A stretch of 64,000 bases of DNA from a virus, in IMG/VR virus record IMGVR_UViG_3300047319_001031, positions 4,754-68,753 of that record; one strand, written 5' to 3'. The notes beneath the pieces were generated by a model. It worked only from the letters and a program-made list of their open reading frames with translations. It did not search any database and was not told where the DNA came from. Made by a program: the position numbers and the translations under genes. The stretch's first letter is position 1, and each line of letters begins with the position of its first letter. This document shows positions 46,845-64,000 of the stretch, piece by piece.

Positions 46845-46877
46845 GGTTTTCCTTTAGTAAATGGTTTGCTACACCTG

Positions 46878-47453
46878 TCACAAAACCTGTTGCGCCAGCT
46901 TCACCAGCTCCAGCACCAGCCGCACGCGAGCATCGTCATCTGCTGAGTGAATGCGTTTGGCGTAGACTTTTTTCTCCGCGCGTGCCGGTATGGCATCGAG
47001 CGGGAAGCTCCCCACCAGTGCTGGCAGCTCCGCTGCTGATCCGTTCCCGTTGACTGGATGACCATTGCCGGGTAGACCAGCTGCCTTGCGCGCGGCTACG
47101 CTCGCAGCGAAGTTTTTATGCTGCTCATCAGTCCACGGGTGCCCGTTTTTTCCGTACTTCAAGCCCGTTCTGGCTTTAACAAAATTGGCGCGGTGCTCGG
47201 ATGTCCAGATCTTGTTGTTGGCCTTGTCGGGCTTGCCAGCCACCTTGCGCGCTTTCAGACCTTTGGCAATATTCTCCGCATGCTCCTTCTTCTTCGCTGC
47301 ACTGCGTGCTGCCATGGTCGCGGAGAATTTCTTGTGCCGTTCCGGCGTCCATTTCTGCGGATGCTTTTTCATGTATGCCTTCACTCGTTTTGAGGTTGCT
47401 GCTCTTTGCTCCGCGGTCCACTCGTAGCCACTATTTTTCGTAGCCATCATCAC
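46878..47453 (-). CDS. basic protein with WT.E.R repeats (NUMOD3-like)
   Basis: WTAEQR, WTPERH, WTSEHR, WTDEQH. Confidence 0.7.
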   Translation of the reverse strand: MMMATKNSGYEWTAEQRAATSKRVKAYMKKHPQKWTPERHKKFSATMAARSAAKKKEHAENIAKGLKARKVAGKPDKANNKIWTSEHRANFVKARTGLKYGKNGHPWTDEQHKNFAASVAARKAAGLPGNGHPVNGNGSAAELPALVGSFPLDAIPARAEKKVYAKRIHSADDDARVRLVLELVKLAQQVL

Positions 47454-47686
47454 CTCAAGAAGTCAATGGAATGAACACGTCGCGTGTACTGCCCGAGCAT
47501 GCGCCCGGTCGTGGCGTTGTAGACTTCGATCGTGGTACCGATCTCTGCCCAGCGCGCCTCGATCAGAGCACCAAGGTGCGCGTTGCGATCGTGTGCGTAG
47601 TAGCGGTGTGGCAGGTTCTCCTTTCTCACAGCATCCCAAAGACGAAACGGTCGGACTGTTTCGTAATCGATCTCGGGGTACTTCAT
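47450..47686 (-). CDS. hypothetical protein
   Basis: Coupled ORF. Confidence 0.65.
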   Translation of the reverse strand: MKYPEIDYETVRPFRLWDAVRKENLPHRYYAHDRNAHLGALIEARWAEIGTTIEVYNATTGRMLGQYTRRVHSIDFLR

Positions 47687-47713
47687 GATGATGTCACCAT
47701 CACTGCTCTCCTT

Positions 47714-48010
47714 TCATCGTTGTTGTTCAACTGCAGGTAGTGCTGCCTTCATCGTCTGCACCCACTTTGCTACATCATCAGCGGCAAGCAGCATCTGGTT
47801 GCGCTTGTAGGTCTTGCCGCAGATCTCACCCGCCCGCCTGAGCATCGCGGTCGGCGTGTAAGCACGGTTGACCTTGATGCGATGCTTGGCATAGAGCCGC
47901 ATCGCTGAGACCAGTGTCGCTGCTGCGTACAGGGCGACCGCATCGGGTCCATAGAAGCCCGTTGCATGGCCATCGGGTCCGTATTCGATGTGGCTGTCTT
48001 TGTCGCTCAC
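47714..48010 (-). CDS. hypothetical protein
   Basis: Coupled ORF; GKTYKR. Confidence 0.65.
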   Translation of the reverse strand: MSDKDSHIEYGPDGHATGFYGPDAVALYAAATLVSAMRLYAKHRIKVNRAYTPTAMLRRAGEICGKTYKRNQMLLAADDVAKWVQTMKAALPAVEQQR

Positions 48011-48188
48011 GCTTTCGTCCTTGCCAGAGCTGCCATATAGTCGGCGCGTGCATTGTCCTTAAGGTCCAGTTCGATGCAACGCATGATTTCGTCACGTGTC
48101 GCTGCATTGCGTACCCATCGCGACGACAAGCGCATACGTTCGCGCGCCTCAGCATCGGTAAGTTTTGGTGGTTCTGATTGAGTAGTGT

Positions 48189-48404
48189 TCATCCGTTGTC
48201 CGTGGTGAAGTTAGTGTTGAGCCACACAAGAAACCCAGCCTTGGTGCCCGGTATGTTGTGAACGTAAACGCTCGTTGTCGGATCGTTGTTGTCCATCTCT
48301 ATTGCTTGCTCACGCAGGGCTTGCTCAGCAGCGCGGCGACTGCCATGCCATGACAACAAAGTGCCATGTTGGCCGTCGATATAAGCAGCGCGGTAAATTT
48401 TCAT
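48189..48404 (-). CDS. hypothetical protein
   Basis: ATGA coupling. Confidence 0.55.
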   Translation of the reverse strand: MKIYRAAYIDGQHGTLLSWHGSRRAAEQALREQAIEMDNNDPTTSVYVHNIPGTKAGFLVWLNTNFTTDNG

Positions 48405-48619
48405 GCATGCACCTTGGCGTCCGCTTCCTGCCGGCGCAGTGCCATCACCCGGCGTGCGATGGTCGTGGCCGATACGTCGAACAGGTCAGCCACCAGTGCC
48501 GTTGTCACGTACTCGCTGACCCGGCGCTCAGCGTTGGGGTCCCCCGGGCCATCCTCGCCCGGGTTGTCGTTCACCGCGATCCATTCGACCGCGGCCTTCA
48601 GTGTCGGTCGACTCATCAT
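48401..48619 (-). CDS. small HTH-like protein
   Basis: AVEWIAVND...LVADLFDV....IA. Confidence 0.6.
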   Translation of the reverse strand: MMSRPTLKAAVEWIAVNDNPGEDGPGDPNAERRVSEYVTTALVADLFDVSATTIARRVMALRRQEADAKVHA

Positions 48620-48750
48620 GTTGGTCCTTTCATTTTCGCCAAGAGAGAACGCGCAACAGATACTTCTGCACGCGCGGCCAATCCTTCGGGTGCACCCAGA
48701 ACTGGCGAAGAACGAAGCCACGCTCTCGCATGGCCTCACGTTCATCCCGC

Positions 48751-49203
48751 TTACGCTGCGTTGCGGACTTTGGCTTTGCCATTGGATTTCATAAAGCCGG
48801 GTTGAATGCCTGCTGCCTTGCGCTCTTCAGCGAGCCGTTTCCCATGGCGCTTCCGAAGTTTCGTCGTGATCGAATCACGCTGCCGGTCGATAACAGACAG
48901 CACCGCACTCGGCAGAATTGTTCGCACCGAGCCCTGCGCGCTGACTTGCGTAACAAACGCCGTTACGCTTTCGTCTGTTCGCACCGTCTGGATGATGTAG
49001 GTAGTGGCATTGCCATAGAAGTCTATGGCCTGCACCACGGCGGGCTTGGTGTGGGCACCATTGGGCAGCCCGATCATGCCCGACAGCATTTTGTCGAACG
49101 GGTCCGACGAGCGCCCTGCCGTCACTTTGTGCTCTGGTCTGTTGTACGTCTGTTGCGAGTCGTCGTTCATTACTTGCTCCGGTTGTCGTGGTTCAATCAC
49201 CAC
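48751..49203 (-). CDS. hypothetical protein
   Basis: 150-aa ORF; start uncertain. Confidence 0.6.
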   Translation of the reverse strand: MVIEPRQPEQVMNDDSQQTYNRPEHKVTAGRSSDPFDKMLSGMIGLPNGAHTKPAVVQAIDFYGNATTYIIQTVRTDESVTAFVTQVSAQGSVRTILPSAVLSVIDRQRDSITTKLRKRHGKRLAEERKAAGIQPGFMKSNGKAKVRNAA

Positions 49204-49323
49204 GACATCATTATAACATGTGACATGTCACGCTCATAGCTGGAAACGCACAAAAGCCATGTTCAGAACTTGTGCCACACGTGCTGCGTCAATAAGTTAT
49301 CGAGCCGACGAACGGTCGAACAG

Positions 49324-49614
49324 TCATTCGATCGGCACTGCATTCCGTGCAGCTTCGACGTCACTGAAGCCACCTTCGTCGTCGGCTATGCCGTCGCCAG
49401 TGGCCTGCCACTTATCGAACTCCTCGACGAACGCCACCAAGGCGGCGTAGCTGTTGCACGCACGGACGATAATCTGCGCTGCTTCCTCGTCGTAAACCGT
49501 AGCGATACAGGTGTCGGTGTTGCCGTTAGCCGTACCATCTGCTTCGCGAATGGTATGGTGGCCAAGCGCATCCGGGCACTCGTCAACAACGAGCATTCCT
49601 AGGGTCGGCATCAT
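49324..49614 (-). CDS. hypothetical protein
   Basis: AAQIIVRACNSY motif. Confidence 0.65.
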   Translation of the reverse strand: MMPTLGMLVVDECPDALGHHTIREADGTANGNTDTCIATVYDEEAAQIIVRACNSYAALVAFVEEFDKWQATGDGIADDEGGFSDVEAARNAVPIE

Positions 49615-50366
49615 TCCTTCACCTCTGCATTCGGTGCCAGCGCCTTGGCTTGTTCGAGCGCGTACTCATGCCCGACGAACCCCCAGCACGAATCGATCTC
49701 GTCGCCGTGCTCGTCCTCGATCACGTAGCCGTAGCACTCGCCATTAAGCCAGCGACCGAACGCCTCGACCGAGCCCTCCAGCGACTTCAGGCACGACTCG
49801 CGGATCTTCTTGGTCACGATCTTGCCACCATGCCATTCGAGCGCAGTCGCTTTGGTGATGTAGGCCACCCCGGAGAGCCCGCTATCCCACTCGGCATGAC
49901 CTTGGGGCAGCAAGCCTGCCCAGCTGCTCGCTTTGAGCGCCACGCCACTGTGGACGTAGGCGTACACCGGTAGGCCGATCAGCTCGCCCGATTGGATTCG
50001 AGCCACCAGCTGCTCGAATTCTTCCTGCTCGACAGGCGTGTTGCCCAGCGTGTAGCGCGAGCCCTTCTTGTATGTGATGACGATGTCGTCGTGTTCGAGC
50101 GGGCTCTCGCAGTCCTGATCGTGCTCGATGCGGATCGTCGTCGGCGTGGGCTTCACCGCCTCGTAATGCTCTCCCTCTTTCAGATCCTCGATGCCCTGTG
50201 CCAAGCGCAGCACCGGGCCGCTGAGCATGATCGGCCCGCGGTCGGAGTCGTGCCCGTCCTTGAAGTTGTCGAAGTCGATGATCTCCACATCAACCTCACC
50301 ACTGGTTGCAGCGACGTCAGCAACGCCCCCGCTCACCGTGATTAATACAGCTGCCTTACCCATCAC
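49611..50366 (-). CDS. hypothetical phage protein
   Basis: YVHSGV...WDSG..G...GECYGY...DSCWGF. Confidence 0.75.
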   Translation of the reverse strand: MMGKAAVLITVSGGVADVAATSGEVDVEIIDFDNFKDGHDSDRGPIMLSGPVLRLAQGIEDLKEGEHYEAVKPTPTTIRIEHDQDCESPLEHDDIVITYKKGSRYTLGNTPVEQEEFEQLVARIQSGELIGLPVYAYVHSGVALKASSWAGLLPQGHAEWDSGLSGVAYITKATALEWHGGKIVTKKIRESCLKSLEGSVEAFGRWLNGECYGYVIEDEHGDEIDSCWGFVGHEYALEQAKALAPNAEVKE

Positions 50367-50526
50367 GTTCTCCTTTAGTTAGTTTTGCTACGCGTGCCAT
50401 GCGGATGCAACCAGCCCTTCTTTGTGATGTGCACACGCTTTCCGCATGTTAGGCAAGTTCCATAATTGCCCCAGCGTGCACCGCCTTGTGTTCGCCCGCC
50501 ACCCTTGTACTCACCACGACACCAGT

Positions 50527-50892
50527 TCATCTGTTGATGGGTGCGGGGTGAGCCCATAGTCCCTCCGGTGGGGTGGTCTGAACAGCCAGCTTGATGACGA
50601 GCTGCAGCGTGTCGTCGAACTCGGGCATGAGATGGAATTCTTGACACACCCGCACGCCCTCGGTGAAATCGCCCGGCGTACTGGATCTCTTGCCGTCCGC
50701 TCTGCGCAGCGGGATGTCCACGCGACCATCCGCTGAAAATTTCACCGTACGAATGAGATCGAGGAACAACAGCCCGTCGTCAGTCGACTCGGGGTTGCCG
50801 GGAATGCGCATCGACTCGTCCGCAACGGCTACCTCTGCTGGTTCAGCAATAAAATACGAATGCCCACAACGTAATTGAAGCGCCCATTTCAT
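50527..50892 (-). CDS. hypothetical protein
   Basis: ACTAAAGGAG leader. Confidence 0.65.
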   Translation of the reverse strand: MKWALQLRCGHSYFIAEPAEVAVADESMRIPGNPESTDDGLLFLDLIRTVKFSADGRVDIPLRRADGKRSSTPGDFTEGVRVCQEFHLMPEFDDTLQLVIKLAVQTTPPEGLWAHPAPINR

Positions 50893-50910
50893 ATCGTTCT
50901 CCTTTAGTGA

Positions 50911-50930
50911 ATTGTGAGACGTCTCACAAA
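50911..50930. promoter_or_regulatory. 20-bp palindromic operator-like site
   Basis: ATTGTGAGACGTCTCACAAA. Confidence 0.75.
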
Positions 50931-50939
50931 TCGGCCCTA

Positions 50940-51074
50940 CTATGTCGGTGGCTGCCATAGCTTCGGCTTGGCCTTCGCCTTCGGTTCCTTCAGGTGAAGC
51001 CGTACTGCCAGATACACGCACACACCAGCGATCGTGCCTGCCAGTGCGGCGACTACAACAGCAAAGAATTCCAT
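50940..51074 (-). CDS. single-TM peptide (44 aa)
   Basis: MEFFAVVVAALAGTIAGVCVYLAVR plus Lys tail. Confidence 0.55.
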   Translation of the reverse strand: MEFFAVVVAALAGTIAGVCVYLAVRLHLKEPKAKAKPKLWQPPT

Positions 51075-51463
51075 CACTGATTCTTTTGGTCGACTCGCTT
51101 CTGTGTGGCAGCCAGCAGCAACTTCATCAGACCGAGCTTCCACTTCGCCAGTTTCACTTGTAGCTCCAGCATGCGGGCCAAGGTAAACACAGGCGGGCCG
51201 TCGTCGTTGAAAAGAAAGTTCGGCTCTGAGCCGCGTTCCAGTGCACGGTGGGCACGTTGAATCTTTGCCCCTTCGGTCTCGACCAGCTTCTTTAGCTCAA
51301 CCATCTCCTCAGCAAGTTGGGCTAGCTCTTCACGTGTCAGCACGTAGTTGTTCGCGTGCACCAGCGTCTCAGGCAGCTGCACTTGCCTTGTCTCGCGGTC
51401 ATACCATGGGTTGCGCGGGTTGCGCTCGAACCAATGGAAGGGCACGGTCTCGGCGTGCTTCAT
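51074..51463 (-). CDS. hypothetical protein
   Basis: Coupled ORF. Confidence 0.6.
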   Translation of the reverse strand: MKHAETVPFHWFERNPRNPWYDRETRQVQLPETLVHANNYVLTREELAQLAEEMVELKKLVETEGAKIQRAHRALERGSEPNFLFNDDGPPVFTLARMLELQVKLAKWKLGLMKLLLAATQKRVDQKNQ

Positions 51464-51696
51464 GCTGCGCTCGTAACTTCTTCGATGTACTGGAATGCCT
51501 CATCCAGCGATCCTACGGCGCTCTCCAAGCTGGTAGCGGCGGCATCGAGCGCCTGACCCTTCTCGCTCTCCTGCGCCTTCTCGCCCTTATTATCGAACTC
51601 TTCGCGAGCTTCGCTGGCAATCGTCTCCAGATCGGACTTCACCTGCTCGATCGACGATGCGATGACGGACAGGGCTTTCAGTTGTGATGCTTTCAT
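51460..51696 (-). CDS. acidic helical protein
   Basis: E.FDN..E..QESEKGQ. Confidence 0.7.
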   Translation of the reverse strand: MKASQLKALSVIASSIEQVKSDLETIASEAREEFDNKGEKAQESEKGQALDAAATSLESAVGSLDEAFQYIEEVTSAA

Positions 51697-51708
51697 TGCT
51701 CTCCTTTT

Positions 51709-51921
51709 TTATAAGTTGCGAACGAGGACCGTGTTGTCGAATTCACGCTTGCGCTTCCGGTCCATCTTGTACGCATAGCGTTGCGTTGCTATTTCAGCGA
51801 ACCACTGCCGCAGCTCGTGGCCATCCCACTCTTCCGGGACTTGCGGCAGATGTTCAAGCATGTGCTTCTTGGCGCCCTCGCACATCTCGGCGATGATGCG
51901 AGCTTGATCATCTTTGGTCAT
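51709..51921 (-). CDS. hypothetical protein
   Basis: VPEEWDGHELRQ. Confidence 0.65.
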   Translation of the reverse strand: MTKDDQARIIAEMCEGAKKHMLEHLPQVPEEWDGHELRQWFAEIATQRYAYKMDRKRKREFDNTVLVRNL

Positions 51922-51935
51922 TCCCTTTCCTTTAG

Positions 51936-53159
51936 TTAGTTGACGTTCACCACTTCACCGAACGGCGCCGTAGAGATCTGGCTCACACTTACCCAGATCA
52001 CAGGAATATCCGGCTCGCGTCCGAACCTACCTTCCATATCGGTCAAGAACAGACAGACCTCGGGCCGCTCTTCGCAATCCTCAAGATCATCTGCAAGCCA
52101 GCTGAAGTTCGTACCACCGCCGCCGACTTGATGCACTTGAACCTCAGCATCACCGCGGTCGAAGCGCTGGTCGTACTCGTGATTGACTGTGGTCTGGAAG
52201 TAGCGGACCTCGATCCACTTCGGCTTGACCTCTTCCCAGATGTCCTTCATGTGGTGATTGAAGACAGGAAGATCATCCCAGCAGGAACCGGAAGCATCGA
52301 TGTACATCCGGACACCGCCCATGGCGGGCTGGTATAAGTCCGGTGCGATCACGCCGGTCTTGATAAATTCCCGACGACTGAAGCGAGACCATGAGTAGTC
52401 CGCTATCGACATGGATTTAAGATGCTGCTCAACAACTTCATACCAGTGCACCCTAACGTGGTCAGCGGACTCAAGAGCCCGCTTCATCCACGCTGGCACA
52501 TTACCTGCCATCTTAGCAGCCTGATCCGCCGCCTTCAACTCATGGCGTACCCGGTTCTCAAACTCCTGCTCGGTCTCTTTGGGCCGGTCGGTCGGTGCCT
52601 CTTCCGGCTGGCCGTCCGGAGTCTCCCCGAACCGGACCAGATCCTTGGCAGTCCCGACCATCTCTTCGGTGAATTCTTCAAAGGTCTTGCTGCCCCCTTG
52701 CTTCTTGTGCTCCTCATGGGCCTTATCCATGAGATCGTCGTACACCGCTTCAGTGGTCCAGTCCTTGTACTCCGGATCACAGAACCAGTTGAACGGCTTG
52801 CCATCGATCGTCATGTCTGCCAGCGGCTTGAAGCCCGACTCCTGCAGCATCAGGTTGATCACGTGATCCCCGGCAATATTCCAGATGAACGGGTTGCGCG
52901 CACCAAGCCGGGACGGGTGCATGAACACCTTGTGCCCCAGCTCGTGCGCCACAGCCGTCATCTTTCGATCCCGGTCCAACTGCCCCCAGAACTTCGGATC
53001 GACCCACACCGACACACCATTCGTTGCCAGCGTCTTGAACGGCAGATCGTGGCACTCGTAGAACTGCATGGTGTAATACATTCCCATGAACCATGAGTAG
53101 CGCAACATCAACCGCGCTGCGGTCGGCGCCATCTGGTCGAAGGGTTTGTTGTACGTCAT
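51936..53159 (-). CDS. DUF2201-like metallopeptidase plus vWA protein
   Basis: TLATNG, AHELGH, WNIAGDHVIN; MIDAS DASGS, GGGGT, LTD. Confidence 0.85.
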   Translation of the reverse strand: MTYNKPFDQMAPTAARLMLRYSWFMGMYYTMQFYECHDLPFKTLATNGVSVWVDPKFWGQLDRDRKMTAVAHELGHKVFMHPSRLGARNPFIWNIAGDHVINLMLQESGFKPLADMTIDGKPFNWFCDPEYKDWTTEAVYDDLMDKAHEEHKKQGGSKTFEEFTEEMVGTAKDLVRFGETPDGQPEEAPTDRPKETEQEFENRVRHELKAADQAAKMAGNVPAWMKRALESADHVRVHWYEVVEQHLKSMSIADYSWSRFSRREFIKTGVIAPDLYQPAMGGVRMYIDASGSCWDDLPVFNHHMKDIWEEVKPKWIEVRYFQTTVNHEYDQRFDRGDAEVQVHQVGGGGTNFSWLADDLEDCEERPEVCLFLTDMEGRFGREPDIPVIWVSVSQISTAPFGEVVNVN

Positions 53160-53174
53160 GACACTTCCTTTCAG

Positions 53175-54050
53175 TTAGTTGGGTATCAGCACTGCGATGC
53201 GCGCCGCCAGAGCCTCAGCCTTGCGCTGCCGCTCCAGCCGGAACATATCGCTGTCCTTCAGATCCTTCCGCGTTACGCCATCCACCAGCGACACCGCTTC
53301 CGCCGCCAGTGCATCGATGCGAGGATCACGTGCGATGTTCAAGCGCTGTGCCGCTGCGCCCATGTTGCGCACGTTCTCGATCAGCGAGTCGTAGATTTTC
53401 TTGACGTCGCCATCGGTGTACGCCTTGAGCTGCTTGGCCATGTGCTGTACTGGCGTCAGCAACTCGGTGAACGCGTGGCTGATGCTCGCGTTGTACACCT
53501 TCTCCTGCTCTTCCTTCAGGCTGGCCTCGATCTCGGCCCGGACATGCGCCGGTATCTCGGTCAGCACCCGCACGTCGTTCGCATTCGGCAGCGGCTGCAC
53601 TGCCAAGCGCAACGCAAACCTAGCCCGCACGTGTTCCCACGCCGGGTAGTCGTTCGGATCGAACATGTCGCGCAACGTCTCCCGCATGGTGGCGATCTTG
53701 CCCGGGTACACGACCTCGAACGCATCGAGCAGCGGTTCCAGCCCGGCTTCCTTGTCGCCGAAGTCGGTCATCAGCTCCATGTGATTCTCGGCCTTGCCCA
53801 CCCGTACGCCCCGGGCCTCACCCCACGGCGCCGTGTGCAGGTAGAACCACGACCGGGTGCCACCGATCCAGCTGGCCACCGCCTTCAGCTCGTCGCAGTC
53901 GGGCAGGATCAGCTTGTTGAAGTTGCCCGCATCGGTGCTGTCACTCACCCCGTTGGCGACCTTGGCTTGGGACGTAACCCTCTTATCCAGCTTGCGCGCC
54001 GTCCACGTTGGCGCGTTAAGGCTGTACATCAGCAGCGACGTCAATTCCAT
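53175..54050 (-). CDS. DUF3150-like helical protein
   Basis: WTARKLD...T.PW...FDPNDYP; between AAA and vWA genes. Confidence 0.6.
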   Translation of the reverse strand: MELTSLLMYSLNAPTWTARKLDKRVTSQAKVANGVSDSTDAGNFNKLILPDCDELKAVASWIGGTRSWFYLHTAPWGEARGVRVGKAENHMELMTDFGDKEAGLEPLLDAFEVVYPGKIATMRETLRDMFDPNDYPAWEHVRARFALRLAVQPLPNANDVRVLTEIPAHVRAEIEASLKEEQEKVYNASISHAFTELLTPVQHMAKQLKAYTDGDVKKIYDSLIENVRNMGAAAQRLNIARDPRIDALAAEAVSLVDGVTRKDLKDSDMFRLERQRKAEALAARIAVLIPN

Positions 54051-54069
54051 TTCCGACTCCTTTAGTTAG

Positions 54070-54089
54070 TTTGTGATACCTCTCACAAA
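54070..54089. promoter_or_regulatory. 20-bp palindromic operator-like site
   Basis: TTTGTGATACCTCTCACAAA. Confidence 0.75.
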
Positions 54090-56380: not shown

Positions 56381-56574
56381 AATGTTCTCTTTCCCGAACG
56401 GAACCACGAAGCGTAGCGCATACCACTAAGCGAGTAACACTTCGATCGGTACACGGATTCACTTGCCGTGCTGGTTATGGATACCGCACGCCCTCGGCAA
56501 GTAGACCATGCGCCTCTACCAGAAGCAGCCCAACAGAACGAAAGGTTGGACCCGTAATGGCTAAGCAGGATCAT
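56377..56574 (-). CDS. MI-head Ser/Arg micro-ORF (65 aa)
   Basis: MILLSHY... Confidence 0.55.
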   Translation of the reverse strand: MILLSHYGSNLSFCWAASGRGAWSTCRGRAVSITSTASESVYRSKCYSLSGMRYASWFRSGKRTL

Positions 56575-56855
56575 TGCGGCACCAGCAGCAACTGATACGG
56601 TTCCACATCCAACGCATAAGCGATCGCAGCAACAGCATCCATGCTCACGCCGTATTCTCCGGCGAGAATGTAGCCAATGGTTCGAGCCGACACCAGCTTG
56701 CCCTTCTTGATCCCGGATAAATAGCGGGCCTGCAAACGCTTAACGCCTATGCGTTTTGCTTTCATCAGTGCCTTGATGTTGTCAGCCAGCTGGCGACGAT
56801 AGTCGATCGGCATTGAACGACCACACGTTGGACAAATGTTAGCTTTGGTTTTCAC
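56571..56855 (-). CDS. XRE-family HTH regulator with CxxC
   Basis: CPTC; LADNIKAL...VSARTI..I..G....SMD.V..IA.AL.V.P..LL. Confidence 0.75.
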   Translation of the reverse strand: MKTKANICPTCGRSMPIDYRRQLADNIKALMKAKRIGVKRLQARYLSGIKKGKLVSARTIGYILAGEYGVSMDAVAAIAYALDVEPYQLLLVPQ

Positions 56856-57019
56856 TATGTCTCCCTCGATTCCGATTTCCAAACGGATGCTGACCTAGAT
56901 CCAAACCTTGACTTCGGTGGTGACCGATGGTCTCGTCCTGACCGTGAGTACCAGTACATCATCGTCCTTGATCGAGACCACGACCGTGCATCATCTAGCC
57001 AGCTACCGAGCAGGATCAT
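56855..57019 (-). CDS. MI-head Ser/Arg micro-ORF (54 aa)
   Basis: MILLGSWLDDARSWSRSR... Confidence 0.6.
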   Translation of the reverse strand: MILLGSWLDDARSWSRSRTMMYWYSRSGRDHRSPPKSRFGSRSASVWKSESRET

Positions 57020-57168
57020 GACGAGTGTGCCCTCGATGTGAACATCGACCCCGAGCGCGATCGATTCCGTCTCTGCGTTGCCGTACCACACGACGAACTC
57101 CTGCGCCGTATTCTCTTTGCACCTGAGCGTGACTGCAATCCCAGCCGCCAGAAGGGTAGGGGGATCAT
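57016..57168 (-). CDS. MI-head Ser/Arg micro-ORF (50 aa)
   Basis: MIPLPFWRLGLQSRSG... Confidence 0.6.
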   Translation of the reverse strand: MIPLPFWRLGLQSRSGAKRIRRRSSSCGTATQRRNRSRSGSMFTSRAHSS

Positions 57169-57335
57169 GATGATTGCGATCTCGTCCACGCCCCCAGCAC
57201 CGACTGCACACGACCGTTGCCTTTCCGCCCTCCAGATATTGATGCCCATACTGATCCGGACGCAGCCCCCGATGACGACATGCATTTTTGCTGGGAACGT
57301 ACTACCGACAACAACCACGGATGCAAGGGGATCAT
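57165..57335 (-). CDS. MI-head Ser/Gly micro-ORF (56 aa)
   Basis: MIPLHPWLL... Confidence 0.6.
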   Translation of the reverse strand: MIPLHPWLLSVVRSQQKCMSSSGAASGSVWASISGGRKGNGRVQSVLGAWTRSQSS

Positions 57336-57475
57336 TGCACCACCGGCCACCATGACTTACGCGAGCGCCATTGCGACCACATCCGCCCAACGGAATGCGA
57401 TTGCCCCAACAAGCCGGACCTCCCACGCGATCGAGAGTACCGTTTGCCCCGCCATACGGGGTGTAGCAAGATCAT
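57332..57475 (-). CDS. MI-head Ser/Arg micro-ORF (47 aa)
   Basis: MILLHPVWRGKRYSRSRGRSG...WSQWRSRKSWW. Confidence 0.6.
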   Translation of the reverse strand: MILLHPVWRGKRYSRSRGRSGLLGQSHSVGRMWSQWRSRKSWWPVVQ

Positions 57476-57494
57476 TTGTGAGAGGTCTCACAAA
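57475..57494. promoter_or_regulatory. 20-bp palindromic operator-like site
   Basis: TTTGTGAGAGGTCTCACAAA. Confidence 0.75.
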
Positions 57495-57497
57495 CCG

Positions 57498-57857
57498 TTA
57501 CTTCTGCACCCGCTGCAGCTTCGACACGATCTTCGCATCGACGATGCACCCGCGGTTGACGATCACGTGGCCATCAGGGAACGGCTCGCACTCGTTGAAC
57601 GTCTCGGTCTTGAGCGCATCGGCGAACCGGCCCGTGTCGGGAATCCACGCTGCATCTTCCAGCAGCAGCTCGTGCTCGCTGATGGCGATCAGCCGGCCGA
57701 CGTTGGTCATGGTGACGGTGCGAATGAAGTAGATCGCCCCGAGGCGCCACAGCCCGATGTGCTTGGGATCACTGGGGATGATCTCGGTCTGCTGCGTCAG
57801 CTTCTCAGTGATGATCGCGTCGACCTCGGCTTGGGTGTACGTCGCTTTCTTTGCCAT
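57498..57857 (-). CDS. small beta-barrel (Sm-like?) protein
   Basis: G.IYFIRTVT...GRL...ELLLEDAAWIPDTGRF...EP...VNRG.IVD; ACTAAAGGA leader. Confidence 0.75.
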   Translation of the reverse strand: MAKKATYTQAEVDAIITEKLTQQTEIIPSDPKHIGLWRLGAIYFIRTVTMTNVGRLIAISEHELLLEDAAWIPDTGRFADALKTETFNECEPFPDGHVIVNRGCIVDAKIVSKLQRVQK

Positions 57858-57924
57858 GATATTTTTCCTTTAGTTAAGGTTGCTGCAGGCTACACGCTCG
57901 AATGAACGTGCACCCAAGAGGAAC

Positions 57925-58080
57925 CTATTGCGACCTTGCTCTCTTCATCATCTTATTTGATTCCGATACTGACCCTGATCTCCTTCCCGTACGGCACCCG
58001 AACACTGACCACATTCGTTTCACTCCTGTTCGTGACCCAGACGCGTTGCGCCACATCTGCCACGGCGAAAATAGGATCAT
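57925..58080 (-). CDS. MI-head Ser/Arg micro-ORF (51 aa)
   Basis: MILFSPWQMWRNASGSR... Confidence 0.6.
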   Translation of the reverse strand: MILFSPWQMWRNASGSRTGVKRMWSVFGCRTGRRSGSVSESNKMMKRARSQ

Positions 58081-58217
58081 CTCGACCTCGACCCACACCA
58101 CGAATACACCCGTGACGCAGAGTGCGATGTATGCATGGTTGTTTTATTGCCACGTGACCGGGACTTTATGCTCTGCCCCTTGCGATTGTGGAATTTCCAC
58201 GGGTTGAACAGGATCAT
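58077..58217 (-). CDS. MI-head Ser/Arg micro-ORF (46 aa)
   Basis: MILFNPWKF...YSWCGSRSR. Confidence 0.6.
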   Translation of the reverse strand: MILFNPWKFHNRKGQSIKSRSRGNKTTMHTSHSASRVYSWCGSRSR

Positions 58218-58399
58218 CCCACTCCCTTTTCACCACGTGACACCGATCGTGATTTGTCCCCTGATGTTGAAGCTGGGGCAATGCGGTTGCGTGACTGGGT
58301 GAACGATCGCGCTACTTGACCGAAGCGCGACCACTCCACTGGCTTTGACCGTGCACCTGAGCGGGACATGCGAACGTGCCAACGTTGTATCAGGATCAT
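58214..58399 (-). CDS. MI-head Ser/Arg micro-ORF (61 aa)
   Basis: MILIQRWHVRMSRSGARS... Confidence 0.6.
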   Translation of the reverse strand: MILIQRWHVRMSRSGARSKPVEWSRFGQVARSFTQSRNRIAPASTSGDKSRSVSRGEKGVG

Positions 58400-58759
58400 T
58401 GCGCGCGACTACTAGGTCTCTTCACGCGCGTTGCTGATCAGCAGGCTGATCAGGTTCTCCAGATCACGATGCTGATGCGCTGTGATTGGCGTGTGCTGAT
58501 AGATGATGCGTGCCATGTTGTTGATGACGTTGGCTGACACAACAACGTCGGTGTTGCTCGGTAGGGTAGGGTTCACAACGTCGCCCCATCGATCTCGATC
58601 AGCTCATCGTTCCCGGGCTCATCCTGCTCGGCCGGGAATGTGCACGACCCAATGGTGACCGTGATCTCATGCGCGTGATCATCGATCCACTTGCGTGCCT
58701 CAGCCTCACTCGTTGCCCTAATGCGCATCGTCGTGAACAGCTTCACATCAAAGCCGTAC

Positions 58760-59275
58760 TCATGCGTCGTCATCATCATCCCCTTCTTCATCATCACCAA
58801 ACTCCAGATACAATGCGACCACGCCCATCTCGTTAGTGATGGTGAAGCATCGATAGCTACCGTCACCAAAGGCTGAGCTGCTGACCACGCCGCTGTCATC
58901 GATCACGCCCCAGCCATGGCCCGGGTGCGCTGTGGTAGCGCAACACTTGCCATAGAAGCTGGCCTTATCGTCGTACTCACCACCATGATGCTGGTTGAAA
59001 TACTCAGCATCGAAGAACCCTGCTTGGCCTGAGTCCACGCCAACATCGATGTCCGAGTCCACCCACAATTCATCCGTTGTCGGCATCGGAACCTTGTCGT
59101 GCCATGCGAAGATCCGCATCTGGCGCAGCCCCCACTGACCTTGGTGTTCCGTTTCCACATTACAAAACCAGCGGCCCTTGGCCACGTTCTCGATCGTGCC
59201 AGCGCACCACGTGTCGGGCTTGTAGCATGGGTCAGTGACCCGCACCTTGCCTGACTTGATTGTGAAGCTAAGCAT
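58760..59275 (-). CDS. DUF4241-like protein
   Basis: VTDPCY, GVDSGQAGFFD, SAFGDGSY. Confidence 0.75.
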   Translation of the reverse strand: MLSFTIKSGKVRVTDPCYKPDTWCAGTIENVAKGRWFCNVETEHQGQWGLRQMRIFAWHDKVPMPTTDELWVDSDIDVGVDSGQAGFFDAEYFNQHHGGEYDDKASFYGKCCATTAHPGHGWGVIDDSGVVSSSAFGDGSYRCFTITNEMGVVALYLEFGDDEEGDDDDDA

Positions 59276-59286
59276 TCCGTTCCCCT

Positions 59287-59538
59287 TCAGTTAGTAACAG
59301 CCTCATGCAGCGGCAGCTGCACAGGTGTGTAAGCGCACGTGATGATCTGCCGGTACGCAGTGGTAACCCAAGCGCGCTCGATCCATACCGGACCACAACG
59401 CATCTCGCCCATGGTGTCACTCCACACTGCCTCGCCTAACAACAGCTTGGTAGGAGTGAGCGCGGTCAGCTTGCCTGTCGCTGTCAACGTGGGTGTACTA
59501 ACCACGTACACCGCCCCGACTTGCCAGTCATTCTTCAT
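59287..59538 (-). CDS. possible paralog of 57498-57857
   Basis: GAVYVVSTPT...TGKL...LLL.EAVW. Confidence 0.6.
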   Translation of the reverse strand: MKNDWQVGAVYVVSTPTLTATGKLTALTPTKLLLGEAVWSDTMGEMRCGPVWIERAWVTTAYRQIITCAYTPVQLPLHEAVTN

Positions 59539-59558
59539 TGCTGTCCTTTAGTCAGTGG

Positions 59559-59578
59559 TTTGTGATACCTCTCACAAA
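59559..59578. promoter_or_regulatory. 20-bp palindromic operator-like site
   Basis: TTTGTGATACCTCTCACAAA. Confidence 0.75.
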
Positions 59579-59769
59579 TTGTTGATGGTACCGAGCGGCT
59601 GCGCCTTGCCCTGCGCCCGCAACGCGAGCTTGTGCATCAGCAACCCTGCCTTGATGACGTCATCCACATCGTTGTCGAATGCGTCAGTTTTGATGTAGCT
59701 ACGCAACGCTGCGATCAGCATCTTCGCCTCGTTGCTGTTCACCTGCACGTGATCGAACCGCGTTTCCAT
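59572..59769 (-). CDS. hypothetical protein
   Basis: ACTGAAAGGA leader. Confidence 0.6.
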   Translation of the reverse strand: METRFDHVQVNSNEAKMLIAALRSYIKTDAFDNDVDDVIKAGLLMHKLALRAQGKAQPLGTINNL

Positions 59770-59782
59770 GATTTCCTTTCAG

Positions 59783-60163
59783 TTATGGTGCTACGTCCTC
59801 GTCCACTCGCTCGATGATCTTGGCCTGCACCGCAGCCGGGATGCTGTCCCATTCCTCACTGGACAGATCGAAGTAGGCCATGATGTTGGCCACGCCCCAT
59901 GTTTCTATGGGCACGGTCTCAACGAATCCATCCATGCGCTCCTGCAATTCCACACGCTTGACGTCAGCCAGCTCGGGAAATTCCTTGCGGTCCTCGTCGG
60001 TCACGTTGAACTTGGCCACACCATCGTCGTCACTGTCGGCGCCGCCATGCATCATCAGATCGTAGAAGTACAGCGCATACACCGGCTCACCCTCGAACTT
60101 GCCGGGTGAGATGATGACGCCATCCTTTACCTTGTATTGTGCTTCGATCTCAGCGCGTGTCAT
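59783..60163 (-). CDS. hypothetical protein
   Basis: SPGKFEGEP. Confidence 0.65.
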   Translation of the reverse strand: MTRAEIEAQYKVKDGVIISPGKFEGEPVYALYFYDLMMHGGADSDDDGVAKFNVTDEDRKEFPELADVKRVELQERMDGFVETVPIETWGVANIMAYFDLSSEEWDSIPAAVQAKIIERVDEDVAP

Positions 60164-60164
60164 T

Positions 60165-60383
60165 TCATTTTCCTTGAGTGAATACCGCTTCCAGCATGTA
60201 CGCCATGTAATCGGCGTCGTTCTCCTGCCCGGTTACCTTGTTGATCCGCGGCATGGCAGGTATCACCACTTCGTCTCGCACGCGCGAATGAAACAACGGC
60301 GACATCCGGGTCTTCGCCCACAACGCAGCGGCTTTGGCCAGCTCCTGCTCAGTGAACAGCTTGCCCAGTGCGATCTTTTTCAT
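60165..60383 (-). CDS. hypothetical protein
   Basis: TGQEND..Y.AY. Confidence 0.6.
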   Translation of the reverse strand: MKKIALGKLFTEQELAKAAALWAKTRMSPLFHSRVRDEVVIPAMPRINKVTGQENDADYMAYMLEAVFTQGK

Positions 60384-60559
60384 TCGTTATCCAGCATCGA
60401 TTGGTATTCGTCATTCACCTGCTGATCGGTCAGGTTGTTGTACTGCACCCAACCGTCACCCATCAGCACGCTATGCAGGAACGAGTGGTCATCGTCGTAA
60501 TTCAGAATCGAATCGATGTCGCGCTCAACCAGCCGCTTTACCTTTTCGTCGCGTGTCAT
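60380..60559 (-). CDS. small acidic protein (59 aa)
   Basis: ATGA-coupled at both ends. Confidence 0.55.
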   Translation of the reverse strand: MTRDEKVKRLVERDIDSILNYDDDHSFLHSVLMGDGWVQYNNLTDQQVNDEYQSMLDNE

Positions 60560-60759
60560 CCCACTTCCTTCAGCTGCCCATCGATGAACGTGTAATTCAC
60601 CGGATCAGCACACTCGACCACACGTGTGCCCGTCACCAGCATCCAGCGCCGCTTGAGATCAGCGACGTTATCCAACGCTTCCTGCTCAGTGGCAAAGCGC
60701 AGTGCGTTGCCACACCACGTGCCACTGCTGTCCGCTTGTACTTCGGGTTTCCAGCTCAT
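60556..60759 (-). CDS. hypothetical phage protein (67 aa)
   Basis: SWKPEV...W..NALRFAT..EA. Confidence 0.7.
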   Translation of the reverse strand: MSWKPEVQADSSGTWCGNALRFATEQEALDNVADLKRRWMLVTGTRVVECADPVNYTFIDGQLKEVG

Positions 60760-60777
60760 TGCATTTCCTTTCAGTGA

Positions 60778-60797
60778 ATTGTGAGACCTATCACAAA
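60778..60797. promoter_or_regulatory. 20-bp palindromic operator-like site
   Basis: ATTGTGAGACCTATCACAAA. Confidence 0.75.
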
Positions 60798-61057
60798 CCG
60801 CACACATCAGCCAGCATCGACACCGTAGTAGATGCGTCTGCATCGGTCACAGTGAAGCGCCAGCCTGTGTTGCGATTGGTCACCACCACGTACCGATACC
60901 CCTTGGTAGCAACCATGCGCTGCGCTGCTGCGATGGCCCGGTTAGGGCAGGCGTGGAACCTGCCTACCTGCACGTGAGCACCCTCACCCATGCTGCCCTT
61001 GACATCAGCAGTGATGGCGTACGTGCCCACGCTCTTGCGATGATAGTCTAGGAACAT
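60791..61057 (-). CDS. hypothetical protein
   Basis: GGAG RBS. Confidence 0.55.
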   Translation of the reverse strand: MFLDYHRKSVGTYAITADVKGSMGEGAHVQVGRFHACPNRAIAAAQRMVATKGYRYVVVTNRNTGWRFTVTDADASTTVSMLADVCGL

Positions 61058-61233
61058 CGCGCTCCCTCATTGAACACCAGCTCGTCGGTGCGCACCCACG
61101 TGAATGGGTTGACCCGCTCGCCAAAGTTACAGAAGCACCGCTCGCTGCCATGCACTAACACCATGCAGCGAAACCCGGTGCGCACGTGCGTTGCTGCCAA
61201 CTGCTCGTTGGCTTGGTACTCGGAATGCTCCAT
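61048..61233 (-). CDS. hypothetical protein
   Basis: ACTAAAGGA leader. Confidence 0.55.
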   Translation of the reverse strand: MEHSEYQANEQLAATHVRTGFRCMVLVHGSERCFCNFGERVNPFTWVRTDELVFNEGARCS

Positions 61234-61412
61234 GATTTTCCTTTAGTGAATGTGCTGCTCTGCCTCGTTGGCCATGCGCACGAACACCTGCGCCAGCCAG
61301 CGTAAGTCCTCGGGCCTGCTCACACCTGTGCGATAGCCATCGATCTCGACCATGACCACGGTCGTGCTCGTGTTGCGCTTGGGCCGGCGCAACTCGGTGA
61401 TCATTTTCTTTT

Positions 61413-61658
61413 TCACGCTTTCCCCGGGATGGAGTAGACCACCATATCGATACCGACATCGATGCAAGCTGCCATCTCGCGCAGCATCTCGTGCGTCTCG
61501 CGATCGTTGAAGATCTGCCCACCACAGGGCACAAAGCCCAGCCCGATGGCGACATAATCCGCGATCACTTCGCTCGGCGCCGCGATCCAGATGGTCGCTT
61601 CGTCAGCCTCGATTGGGAGCTTCGGATTGTGATACTGGTACGTGTAGAGATGTTGCAT
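61413..61658 (-). CDS. first early gene, hypothetical (81 aa)
   Basis: ACTAAAGGAAAGGA leader. Confidence 0.6.
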   Translation of the reverse strand: MQHLYTYQYHNPKLPIEADEATIWIAAPSEVIADYVAIGLGFVPCGGQIFNDRETHEMLREMAACIDVGIDMVVYSIPGKA

Positions 61659-61732
61659 GATCCTTTCCTTTAGTAAGTGGAGTTGCTTGGGTTGTGCGCC
61701 CTCGATGGACGTTCGTCTCGATGAAGATGCAC

Positions 61733-61779
61733 AAAAAAGCAACCCCGCAGGGCTGAGCAGAGCCCAGCCCCTGTGCTGC
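61733..61779 (-). terminator. possible terminator/attenuator
   Basis: GGGGCTGGGC-TCT-GCTCAGCCCT stem followed about 11 nt later by T6. Confidence 0.45.
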
Positions 61780-62255
61780 GGCGCTTCCGGCTTAGGTGGT
61801 AGAGCCCACCGTCCCGGTACGAAGTTAGATGTTTGAGTTTTAACGGCCGCAGCGCGGGTGCGCTGTGTTGAAGTTTGTCCGGCGTCTCACGACGCTGACC
61901 CAGCGGGATAGTTAGTCCGGATGAGTGACGCGATCGACGGGGGCTTGCGCTCCCCGGGGAACATGATGTTCCCTGTGGCATCACGTGCTGCGCGCACGTG
62001 CATCGATCACTGGCGCATGAGCCTATGTGGTCACGCGTGGATGTTGCAGCCTACCTGAGCTTTTACGGGGGTCGCTGGACTACTTCGCTGCCTGCTCGAC
62101 CATGCGTTGCCTGCCCACGCGACTCCCTGCGTTGGCGTACGTTCCGGCGTGCTATCAGTCGAGGCCACTAAACCCGCTACACCTGCCGCTGCTCTGGCGT
62201 ATCCATCCGGTGCGCGCTGCCCCTTCCCTGCCTAGGCGCTTCGTCGGGCACGCGC

Positions 62256-62275
62256 TTTGTGATACGTCTCACAAA
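62256..62275. promoter_or_regulatory. 20-bp palindromic operator-like site
   Basis: TTTGTGATACGTCTCACAAA. Confidence 0.75.
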
Positions 62276-62513
62276 CCGCATGGTCTCCGATCCCGGCCCG
62301 GCTTACACATCCACGCGAGCCCGAAAGAGCGATCGAAAAGCGACCGCCCAGACTGGACTCACGCGCTACTCGTGCATGCAAGACCACTAACACCACGATC
62401 ACGTTACGGAGCGCGTGGGATGACGTCGGACAGCAACGTGCATCCACATCGCCTCCCGGCGACCTGGTGTTACTTGCCTACACTTCCGTTTTGTAAAAGA
62501 GCATTGATAGCGG

Positions 62514-62533
62514 TTTGTGAGAGGTATCACAAA
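62514..62533. promoter_or_regulatory. 20-bp palindromic operator-like site
   Basis: TTTGTGAGAGGTATCACAAA. Confidence 0.75.
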
Positions 62534-62601
62534 GCACCCCAACAGACTGCCTTGCTGGCACCTACTTCACATACAACACTTACTCTATCACTATCAACTA
62601 C

Positions 62602-62630
62602 ATTATACCACAATACCACACTAATGTCAA
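62602..62630 (-). promoter_or_regulatory. consensus sigma70 early promoter
   Basis: TTGACA-17 nt-TATAAT with extended -10 TG. Confidence 0.85.
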
Positions 62631-62863
62631 ATACCACCAGTCGGTATAACGACGATAAGCCCATGATAATGCTCCACATTTGTTGTTATGTTGCGGCGCA
62701 ATAATACTTGTTACACGAATGGGGATATTTCGAAGCGGCGGTTACGTAGCGCTAACGTGCTGATACTACGGTGTCGATCTGTCGTACGGAGTTGGCATAC
62801 AGTGGACTTTGGCGCCGGATAGTCACGCAATGCACTTTATAGTCCGGCAATGTGCATCGTAAG

Positions 62864-63157
62864 TCATTGATCTGGGGTAGGCGTTTTGACGGCCATGCCA
62901 TAGGCCCGATACGCCTCGCGGCGCCGGTCATTACGAATCTCGGTAGCACTGCGTCGAGCCCGTTCGAAGACTCGGCGTTGTTCCACGGTTGTTGCCTGAA
63001 ACTCCTGCTTGGCAACGTTCATCATTAGGGTGTATTCGGCGTTAGCCTCATCCAGTGCCTGCTGGCGCATTTCCAGACACTTTGCTCGGTGGCGTAGCGT
63101 GGCTATCCTAGAGTGCATCATCATCTCCCAGTGGCGGGTATTTGAGCTTGGTACCAC
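62864..63157 (-). CDS. hypothetical basic helical protein
   Basis: 97-aa ORF; likely start at MMMH after GGGAG. Confidence 0.45.
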   Translation of the reverse strand: MVPSSNTRHWEMMMHSRIATLRHRAKCLEMRQQALDEANAEYTLMMNVAKQEFQATTVEQRRVFERARRSATEIRNDRRREAYRAYGMAVKTPTPDQ

Positions 63158-63365
63158 CAGCCGCTAGGCGCTGATCGCGGATGAAACGCCAACGACGGTA
63201 GAGAAAACGCGCGTTCTCGCGCGCTTGGTAGATACGCCCATCATAATTGGTGGAATTCCTACCGCGACGATGCAGGGGCAGGGCTGCGATTGCTTTGTAG
63301 CGCCGGACAGCTAAGCGCCACGATCGGTGCAATGCTAGGTCCATCTCGACCAAATTTGTTGCCAT
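63108..63365 (-). CDS. hypothetical Arg-rich protein
   Basis: 85-aa ORF. Confidence 0.4.
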   Translation of the reverse strand: MATNLVEMDLALHRSWRLAVRRYKAIAALPLHRRGRNSTNYDGRIYQARENARFLYRRWRFIRDQRLAAGGTKLKYPPLGDDDAL

Positions 63366-63884
63366 GCGGTAATGTACGGCTAACTCACAATTACAGAATT
63401 GATATTAGTGCCTAGGGGTACATTACGCCCACGCGTGCATCTTAGCAAGCGCCTCGCGCCCGCGCGTAGGGGTTCATAAATATGTAACTGAGAGTTACTA
63501 GTACATTAGATATATCCATTTTATTCCAATCATGGACATAGCACTACGTATGCCGGGATTTAGTGTGACAATTCGGCAAACATAGCGAATCTGTGGCAAT
63601 AGCGTTTCCTCATTTTTCAAATGGTTGGCGTGCACAATAGCTGACTAGTGGGCATATTCTTGTAGGATCATAGACTTAACCTAATTTGGGCGTTTTTCAC
63701 CTGCTGCTGGGCGCTCGCATTGTGTGCAGTATCAGAGTGTTGCAGTGTGCAATGCGTGGCTATGTGAGTGCTGCACCATCATCAACTACGGTGTCGCTGA
63801 GCGTGCTGAGACTGGTCGACTGAGAGGCTGCACAGGGAGTGTGGACTTGGCGTTGACAAGAGTGTGCAGAGTGTGCTTGTGCGA

Positions 63885-63904
63885 TTTGTGAGACGTCTCA
63901 CAAA
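63885..63904. promoter_or_regulatory. 20-bp perfect palindrome, operator-like
   Basis: TTTGTGAGACGTCTCACAAA. Confidence 0.75.
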
Positions 63905-63988
63905 CCGTGCAGTGTGCCAGCGTGTGCGCGCCGAACATCAGCAACACAACAACACATCAACAACTACTAGGTCGATTTTGCGCCGCGG

Positions 63989-64000
63989 TTTGTGAGAGCT
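63989..64000. promoter_or_regulatory. truncated operator-like site
   Basis: TTTGTGAGAGCT at the window edge. Confidence 0.5.

Follow-up and report, generated by a model that had tools for sequence, protein, structure and literature searches.

A lineage-specific array of twelve dyad-symmetric sites in the early arm of an uncultivated phage: candidate operators of a phage-encoded regulator

What reads a palindrome that a phage repeats a dozen times beside its early genes, and does the reader see DNA or RNA? The question is raised by IMG/VR virus record IMGVR_UViG_3300047319_001031, a 68,753-bp phage record of which bases 4754–68753 were analysed as one 64,000-nt stretch (the window; positions below are window positions unless given as record positions). 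A sequence-only reading of the window had pointed to a palindrome, TTTGTGA-N6-TCACAAA, dispersed across the early arm, and had left three explanations unranked: repressor roadblocks, sensing or titration by host CRP/Clp, and mRNA hairpins for processing. Of these, roadblocks are now favoured, the CRP explanation is weakened and the hairpins come without covariation. The palindrome forms a real, lineage-specific array of 12 dyad-symmetric sites. Our preferred reading, to which we would give an even chance, is that these sites are the operators through which a lineage-specific, phage-encoded regulator, binding as a dimer, silences the early arm or shuts it off in a stoperator-like manner.

The genome-wide motif scan suggested by the sequence-only reading has been run. 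With up to two mismatches allowed, the window holds 10 matches against 0.16 expected, none of 100 shuffles reached 10, and every coordinate first listed holds. With up to three substitutions allowed, the full record carries 12 distinct copies, two of them (record 21–40 and record 797–816) beyond the full-length window copies of the earlier listing. The ends of the record are redundant, its final 29 bases repeating the first 29, and a contig of an independent run crosses window position 63997 directly into the record start, which means that the genome is circular or was circularly permuted in assembly. Since the record ends join, the truncated copy noticed at the window end (63989–64000, minus strand) is real and identical to record 21–40. 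The last three record bases are GCT, against the true continuation CGT in the other run's contig, the assembly having broken inside this motif copy. Contigs of two further runs span the copies at 55615, 57475, 60778, 62514 and 63885 with zero differences, so the copies are not an assembly artefact.

All 12 copies lie between record positions 51618 and 816 across the junction, a span of ~18 kb or ~26% of the genome, and are restricted to the leftward early arm and the control region that separates the arms. The claim that the late arm has none holds even for a window scan with the looser core TGTGA-N6-TCACA and up to one mismatch, which yields just one extra site, at 58732 in the right arm. Isolated half-sites are not enriched (3 against ~4.6 expected), and a monomer-site reading was rejected on that ground.

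Aligned on the sense strand, the 12 copies describe a 26-bp dyad, CG-N-TTTGTGA-[G/T]A[C/G]|[C/G]T[C/A]-TCACAAA-N-CG, with KAS|STM at its centre. Arm positions 1–7 are invariant in all 12 copies and positions 14–20 nearly so, the exceptions being the degenerate copy and two terminal A-to-T changes; the spacing between the arms is fixed at 6 bp throughout. Symmetry continues into the spacer, where A9 and T12 are invariant in all 12 copies though they flank the 2-nt centre and are unable to pair. Position 8 is G in eight copies, T in three and C in one, and position 13 shows the mirror complement (C in six, A in five, G in one). The central dinucleotide is GG in five copies, CG in four, CC in two and TG in one. 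The spacer constraint first described, KASSTM, applies to 10 of the 12 copies and fails at 46865 (CACCTG) and at record 797 (TACATC). Outside the arms, C(-2)G(-1) and C(22) are kept in 10 of 12 copies, and the pair between them, 0/21, is complementary in one copy and G-T in three. The half-site triplets occur in both orientations with respect to transcription: GAG|TAC in three copies and TAC|GAG in one, GAC|TAC and TAC|GAC in one each. A symmetry that covers unpairable positions and skips one that must pair in a hairpin points to double-stranded DNA read by a dimer, not to an RNA hairpin. A loop-reading RNA-binding protein is disfavoured as well, because its loop would be GAGGUA in some copies and UACCUC in others.

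The placement of the copies is equally constrained. All genes of the right arm lie on the minus strand and are transcribed leftwards in an operon of ~16 kb; six copies had been described as lying just upstream of a strong ribosome-binding site (RBS), which is right once upstream is taken to mean higher coordinates. The start-associated RBS, ACT[AG]A(A)AAGGA, is restricted to the minus strand: it has 13 matches there, of which 12 mark gene starts between 46.8 and 61.7 kb (46858–61674), and none on the plus strand. At late-gene starts, by our own calls, the Shine-Dalgarno sequence is weak or missing and no comparable RBS is present. Five of the 12 extended RBSs directly follow a palindrome, and a sixth RBS-linked copy, at 55615, precedes the variant RBS ACTAACGAAGGA; from these six copies to the ATG the gaps are 18, 18, 19, 20, 20 and 30 nt. 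The overlap with TGA stops reported earlier is found in four copies (46865, 54070, 59559 and 60778), where motif bases 5–7 are the stop codon of the upstream gene, and apart from these four no copy overlaps coding sequence.

The copies split into seven within the operon, in gaps between a stop and the next RBS, and five in the control region, a poorly coding stretch of ~2.6 kb. Every copy in the window is on the minus strand. In the order of transcription, the intra-operon copies begin at 60778–60797 (one mismatch), whose TGA ends gene 60791–61057 and which stands 18 nt upstream of the ATG of gene 60556–60759. The copy at 59559–59578 (perfect) supplies the stop of gene 59572–59769, with the ATG of gene 59287–59538 following 20 nt downstream. 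At 57475–57494 a perfect copy lies 4 nt past the stop of gene 57498–57857 and heads a poorly coding, strain-variable block of 1.8 kb, and at 55615–55634 another perfect copy lies 30 nt upstream of the ATPase gene 54472–55584, with a strain homology break at its edge, 55634. The perfect copy 54070–54089 contains the stop of an open reading frame (ORF) at 54083–54409 and is followed after 19 nt by the ATG of a conserved 291-aa gene. The copy at 50911–50930 (one mismatch) stands 18 nt from the ATG of gene 50527–50892, and the degenerate copy 46865–46884 (two mismatches) carries the stop of gene 46878–47447 and stands 20 nt from the ATG of gene 46032–46844. The control-region copies are arranged around the leftward gene P0001, the P0001 promoter and terminator, and the early leader. 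Record 797–816, outside the window, lies upstream of what looks by eye like the extended -10 promoter of P0001, and the copy at the record junction (63989–64000, the same as record 21–40) lies directly past the P0001 terminator. A perfect 20-bp palindrome at 63885–63904 adjoins short CACAC-type repeats and an A+T-rich stretch; the perfect copy 62514–62533 occupies about +62 to +81 from a consensus early promoter, 10 nt upstream of a boxA-like 13-mer; and the perfect copy 62256–62275 lies in the non-coding leader of the early operon.

Comparison with relatives shows how narrowly the motif is distributed. The relatives in culture are distant (Pseudomonas phages Rollin and KPP25, Stenotrophomonas phage StenR_269, Xanthomonas phage DES1 and Rhizobium phages, with capsid/polymerase identity of 33–47%); IMG/VR holds 187 capsid relatives, and capsid relatives are found in metagenome-assembled genomes (MAGs) of many phyla. 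The motif occurs in none of 10 complete or near-complete relatives, five of which were scanned directly for it and all ten screened for palindromes (perfect 6–7-nt arms, spacer of at most 12 nt). Orthologues of the genes behind the copies at 46865, 54070 and 55615 are present in G001 and G002, the closest two of the complete relatives. Their orthologous junctions have no palindrome, only the family RBS (CCAyTAACTAGGAG) straight after the stop codon, so that the palindrome is a lineage-specific insert between stop and RBS. Among 109 relative loci (1.08 Mb), a related palindrome was found solely in L042, a 9.3-kb fragment with 89% capsid identity. Its site, TTAGTGAAAC|GTTTCACTAA, lies ~115 nt upstream of a leftward gene at the position equivalent to record 797, and its two halves have changed symmetrically (T3 to A with A18 to T; G8 to A with C13 to T), turning the TGTGA core into AGTGA. 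As to conservation in relatives, whose lack the sequence-only reading would have counted against its proposal, the exact motif was found in no relative examined and a related variant in L042 alone.

Wider searches agree. No related multi-copy carrier was found in viral, genome and metagenome collections, where the exact motif gave unrelated single matches only. The looser N6 pattern is present in at least 120 viral loci, nearly all single and with A+T-rich spacers, and the L042 variant pattern at 114 loci, all single, of which only L042's own contig is related (L311 and L346, for example, are A+T-rich distant phages). Searches for early-arm relatives through the 291-aa protein, the protein P0004 and the ATPase returned only G002 and two distant loci, or nothing.

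Four other relatives have different palindromes, and in three of the four the order stop-palindrome-RBS recurs. The palindrome is GGACATTCCGG-N8/9-CCGGAATGTCC in G004 (seven copies) and AGTTTGTA-NN-TACAAACT in G006 (six copies and one degenerate). In G011:C28, a MAG contig with 79% capsid identity, it is GCTCTATTC-A[G/C/A]-GAATAGAGC, with six copies in 7.4 kb upstream of the terminase, one of which has a stop codon 2 nt before it and an ATG 21 nt after. Pseudomonas phage Rollin has a 25-bp palindrome, AAAAGGTAGYAASTTRCTACCTTTT, in four copies and a half-site clustered in its control region. With just 2 nt at the centre, the palindromes of G006 and G011:C28 are not hairpin loops. The occurrence of different palindromes, or none, in the same slots of sister lineages looks like the trace of rapidly diversifying regulator-operator pairs, possibly immunity groups.

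Several properties of the array favour operators: the fixed spacing, a dyad that runs through an unpairable centre, half-sites in both orientations and the lack of isolated half-sites; so do a lineage-specific sequence and the other through-centre palindromes that relatives have in the same arrangement. A phage-encoded DNA-binding protein would bind the 26-bp site as a dimer. At the five control-region copies, the bound dimer would set promoter output; at the seven intra-operon copies, it would halt elongating RNA polymerase in the manner of stoperators. Early-arm expression would thereby be shut off late in infection or in lysogeny, the latter being an option because the phage carries a tyrosine integrase (gene 33124–34080, minus strand, within the replication module). 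Around a dozen operator copies served by one element-encoded regulator are familiar from KorA/KorB of RK2, the conserved inverted repeats of phiC31 and the C1 operators of P1; those are dispersed palindromic operators as proposed here, with different sequences, proteins and hosts.

The best candidate for the binder, by inference, is a 94-aa helix-turn-helix (HTH) protein of XRE/Cro type encoded at 56571–56855 on the minus strand, with a GTG start behind a GGAG RBS. It matches Pfam HTH_26 with 20.8 bits, and its Atlas model aligns to XRE regulators with a TM-score of 0.75–0.81; its profile found no relative among solved structures. Only two homologues (82% and 76%) exist in 5.8 billion proteins and none in 11 relatives, so that the gene is as lineage-restricted as the motif. 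It is enclosed by the poorly coding block 55635–57475, which contains about nine units 140–190 nt apart, each starting ATGATCC(CCCTACCC); several of them are missing from some strains (joints at 56045, 56851, 57168 and others). In the HTH homologue P0004, 82% identical and encoded on an 8,970-bp contig, the reading frame runs on from the preceding unit, without a 164-nt unit that this phage has. P0001 was rejected as a binder: it is an orphan with one homologue at 97% and one at 40%, none in viral contigs, and an AF2 pLDDT of 51, and L042 has a related palindrome yet an unrelated gene at that position. Two Arg-rich ORFs of the control region, described below, are further possible binders. A phyletic profile found no ORF of this phage common solely to palindrome-bearing relatives. 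Pfam gave no clear regulator family in the early arms of G004 and G006 (two weak sub-threshold matches, to RPA and MarR_2) and zero matches on the 18 ORFs of the G011:C28 contig.

Several points weigh against the operator reading. The element is dispensable for the gene set, since G001 and G002 do without any palindrome at orthologous junctions. The HTH_26 score lies below the 22-bit Pfam cut-off, and which protein binds is a guess. In G004, the spacers of the palindrome vary between 8 and 9 nt and two copies have T opposite G on the sense strand, which looks more like a hairpin. The copies of this phage fold as RNA hairpins of -5.8 to -13.9 kcal/mol, which appear in the minimum-energy fold of 9 of 12 contexts. 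The sense-strand centre is GG in five of the six RBS-linked copies and CC in none, a mild strand bias, although three of those copies are identical 20-mers. Finally, the position of copy 62514, 10 nt upstream of the boxA-like 13-mer, is reminiscent of antitermination sites.

Most of these points belong to an alternative in which each copy acts in RNA, as a 7–9-bp hairpin 5' of the next RBS with a role in processing, stability, translational control or antitermination, possibly bound by a phage RNA-binding protein. We regard it as unlikely, and as the best surviving of the alternatives. Every copy is on the transcribed side of an operon that runs in one direction, with the hairpin predicted in the nine contexts just mentioned, and four copies contain the upstream stop codon, so that terminating ribosomes would melt them. 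The spacing to the ATG is tight (18–20 nt in five of six copies); this is, however, imposed by the extended RBS of the whole family, which is found without palindromes as well. The GG centre of the RBS-linked copies and the variable loops and U-G-compatible changes of G004 fit RNA. The dyad does not: there are no compensatory changes among the 12 copies, unpairable positions are symmetrically conserved, the loop varies (GAGGTA, TACCTC, GACGTC and others), and the flank pair -1/22 is kept where 0/21 is not. The palindromes of G006 and G011:C28, with their 2-nt centre, fit it no better. On these observations, the RNA reading is weakened.

Part of the evidence for the RNA alternative lies in the leader. 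A likely early promoter at 62602–62630 (minus strand) is of sigma-70 type, TTGACA-17-TATAAT with TG (TGgTATAAT), and matches the consensus at 12 of 12 positions. It opens a leader of ~850 nt in which strains differ in length by 1, 2, 42 and 143 nt, which indicates that the leader is non-coding. A terminator-like hairpin with a T run (61741–61764, minus strand) stands between the leader and the first early gene, whose ATG is at 61658. Copy 62514 thus begins ~+62 from the promoter, 10 nt before TGCTCTTTTACAA (62503–62491), with the terminator (61764–61741) after it; we take TGCTCTTTTACAA to match rrn boxA at 12 of 13 positions. In nut sites of lambda type, found downstream of an early promoter, boxA has beside it boxB, a hairpin whose loop is conserved. 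Here, a single copy stands beside a boxA-like 13-mer, the other 11 have none, and the loop is not conserved in one orientation. The boxA-like sequence is absent from relatives, and about one such match per dozen genomes is expected by chance (our arithmetic), so it was dropped as a family feature. A search of the window at gathering thresholds gave no Rfam match, and neither did one of 55400–64000 at E ≤1; no tRNA or tmRNA was detected. Two small Arg-rich ORFs nearby, at 63108–63365 and 62864–63130 on the minus strand (85 and ~88 aa; no family match), might be counted for the RNA reading; in a strain variant their substitutions are at third codon positions, which makes it probable that both are genuine genes.

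A second alternative looks to the host. TGTGA-N6-TCACA is the CRP-family consensus, and CRP, Vfr or Clp might bind these cores, coupling the early arm to host physiology or titrating the regulator. We think this improbable. Core and 6-bp spacing agree with the consensus without a mismatch in nine of the ten window matches; twelve strong sites on replicating DNA would potentially be a sizeable sink; and record 797–816 is centred ~55 bp upstream of the start predicted from the extended -10 promoter of P0001, as read by eye. A host cAMP-receptor-family protein that gates early-operon elongation on metabolic state and is soaked up by replicating phage DNA, making the array a decoy or sensor, is likewise a long shot. 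L042 has AGTGA...TCACT, with the core T lost, and elsewhere among the relatives the same architecture is built with unrelated palindromes. None of the 12 copies departs from TT ahead of TGTGA or from A9/T12, positions at which the E. coli CRP logo holds little information and prefers other bases. CRP activates or represses from about -41.5 or -61.5 relative to a promoter, and from the six RBS-linked copies, 18–30 nt from an ATG, a site at either distance cannot serve that gene; no promoter-like site was found at any copy. Among the genomes of 185,579 bacterial species, the extended motif occurs in nine, in a single copy and never more, the host itself being not identified. No cNMP/CRP domain was found among 59 phage ORFs scanned. 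The sites, then, share the core and spacing of a CRP site and differ from it in the other invariant flank and spacer positions, in a placement that is not that of CRP at promoters, and in a core that is not kept in the nearest relative.

Least probable of all, in our judgement, is that the palindromes are cassette boundaries, recombination or copy-paste modules that promote exchange of early genes without any trans-acting reader, since 14 arm positions and the flanks are held across 12 copies, and the L042 variant is symmetric, which implies selection by a reader. Promoter-stem-loop cassettes of T4-type phages provide the model, and a palindrome that resembles an insertion between stop and family-wide RBS would suit it. 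Four of the seven intra-operon copies separate a gene conserved in G001/G002 from a non-conserved one; by our estimate ~30% of junctions would be expected to do so, and the difference is not significant. Copies 57475 and 55615 bracket the 1.8-kb strain-variable block, which relatives lack. The five copies near control-region promoters and terminators do not lie between cassettes.

Strain variation bears on the same question. The stretch is present in rhizosphere and soil metagenome runs, and no RNA run is listed among the public runs that contain it. A variant ~97% alike occurs in two runs. In both, homology is interrupted precisely at one edge of copy 55615 (joint 55634 to 55750), the only direct hint of a cassette-boundary role; 13 of 15 listed strain joints are not at motifs. 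Among the 40 listed of 709 strain differences, no substitution falls inside a palindrome copy. Copy 62256 also seems untouched: judging from equal counts in two contigs, the 39 substitutions of the contig covering 62222–63997 appear to lie beyond 62340. Two small insertions fall within copy 50911, where the alignment is uncertain; one of them, an inserted T, would restore TTTGTGA.

Simpler functions were rejected outright. The 18-kb arm has 3 promoter-like sites where shuffles give 9.1, and no sigma-70-like site lies at a motif, so the internal copies are not promoters; TATCAC, seen by eye inside some copies, lacks a -35 element and the final T. Nor are the copies intrinsic terminators, their arms being A+T-rich where a G+C-rich stem is needed and no T run following.

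If the sites are operators, what known system do they resemble? The nearest in design are the start-associated sequences and extended start-associated sequences (SAS/ESAS) of Cluster K mycobacteriophages. There, a motif that includes the RBS marks gene starts of the non-structural arm, about half of its occurrences are preceded by an inverted repeat, and the consensus varies from one subcluster to another (PMC3203893). ESAS repeats have imperfect 17-bp arms and a variable spacer. In Adephagia, the ESAS is now read as a SigA-like promoter plus inverted repeat (PMC11373665), and in 2025 SAS/ESAS function was still called unverified (PMC12699233). The present array agrees in that a subset of genes, all in the non-structural arm, has a conserved start-associated sequence with a Shine-Dalgarno element, that an inverted repeat stands just upstream of about half (here five of 12, plus 55615 before its variant RBS), and that the inverted-repeat consensus differs between sublineages. 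Unlike SAS/ESAS, the present sites have invariant arms, a fixed 6-bp spacer, no detectable promoter and copies also away from gene starts; phage and host group are unrelated as well.

Cluster A stoperators are bound by the phage repressor, which stops elongation (PMC9283540). They are asymmetric 13–14-bp sites spread genome-wide and read by a monomeric two-domain repressor (see also PMC9283540). Both systems place many near-identical sites in short intergenic gaps within operons and at early promoters; here, unlike there, the site is a 20–26-bp palindrome with half-sites in both orientations, in 12 copies confined to the early arm. A third comparison is with Cluster O mycobacteriophages, whose 17-bp palindrome TGTTCGGNNNCCGAACA has invariant 7-bp arms, a short variable centre and a function given as unknown (PMC4351075); in Corndog, 34 copies are spread genome-wide, ten of them well inside ORFs (PMC4351075). 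Invariant 7-bp arms, no meaningful orientation and many copies between ORFs are common to that description and to this phage, which differs in that its 12 copies avoid both ORF interiors and the late arm. The element thus lacks defining features of each analogue and would work like them without being a member. Arrangements of this kind have been described before in other phages.

Actinobacteriophages offer well-described examples of dispersed regulatory repeats, and two of the three kinds just compared (stoperators, SAS/ESAS and Cluster O palindromes) still have no known function. The same design, a start-associated RBS with a palindrome before about half of its copies and confined to the early arm, is now seen in an unrelated group of phages from soil and rhizosphere; their relatives in culture have Pseudomonas, Xanthomonas and Stenotrophomonas as hosts. 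One of these relatives, Pseudomonas phage Rollin, makes the idea testable, and a positive result would bear on the function of ESAS-type elements.

Some further features of these genomes may be recorded. Between two motif copies in the control region, window 63400–63960 combines an A+T-rich stretch with short repeats of CACAC/GCACACT type (TRF periods 8–9) and may be an origin or packaging site. The RBS contexts of the relatives' early arms are ACTAGGAG in G001 and G002 and CACTTAAT..AGGAG in G006. In a further relative, G003, 13-mers like TTAGGAGTCCTAA occur five times (17539, 29568, 41043, 61681 and 61879), and CTTTGTCCTAAC-NN-GTTAGGAG recurs upstream of genes as a palindrome that includes the RBS itself. 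The late arm contains a 2,477-aa ORF (7243–14676, plus strand) whose sole match is an uncharacterised PHROG. Among the listed loci with the looser N6 pattern, the spacer TTAATC/GATTAA recurs in 17 of 120. Three pairs of entries from other phages (L190/L191, L199/L200 and L256/L257) have two TTTGTGA-N6-TCACAAA copies with A+T-rich spacers, adjoining TTATCCACA-like sequences that resemble DnaA boxes. Two unrelated metagenome contigs, L126 (2001–2200) and L128, have 90-bp tandem repeats, each with TTTGTGATACCTATCACAAAA beside a TATAGCGAGAGG-like sequence.

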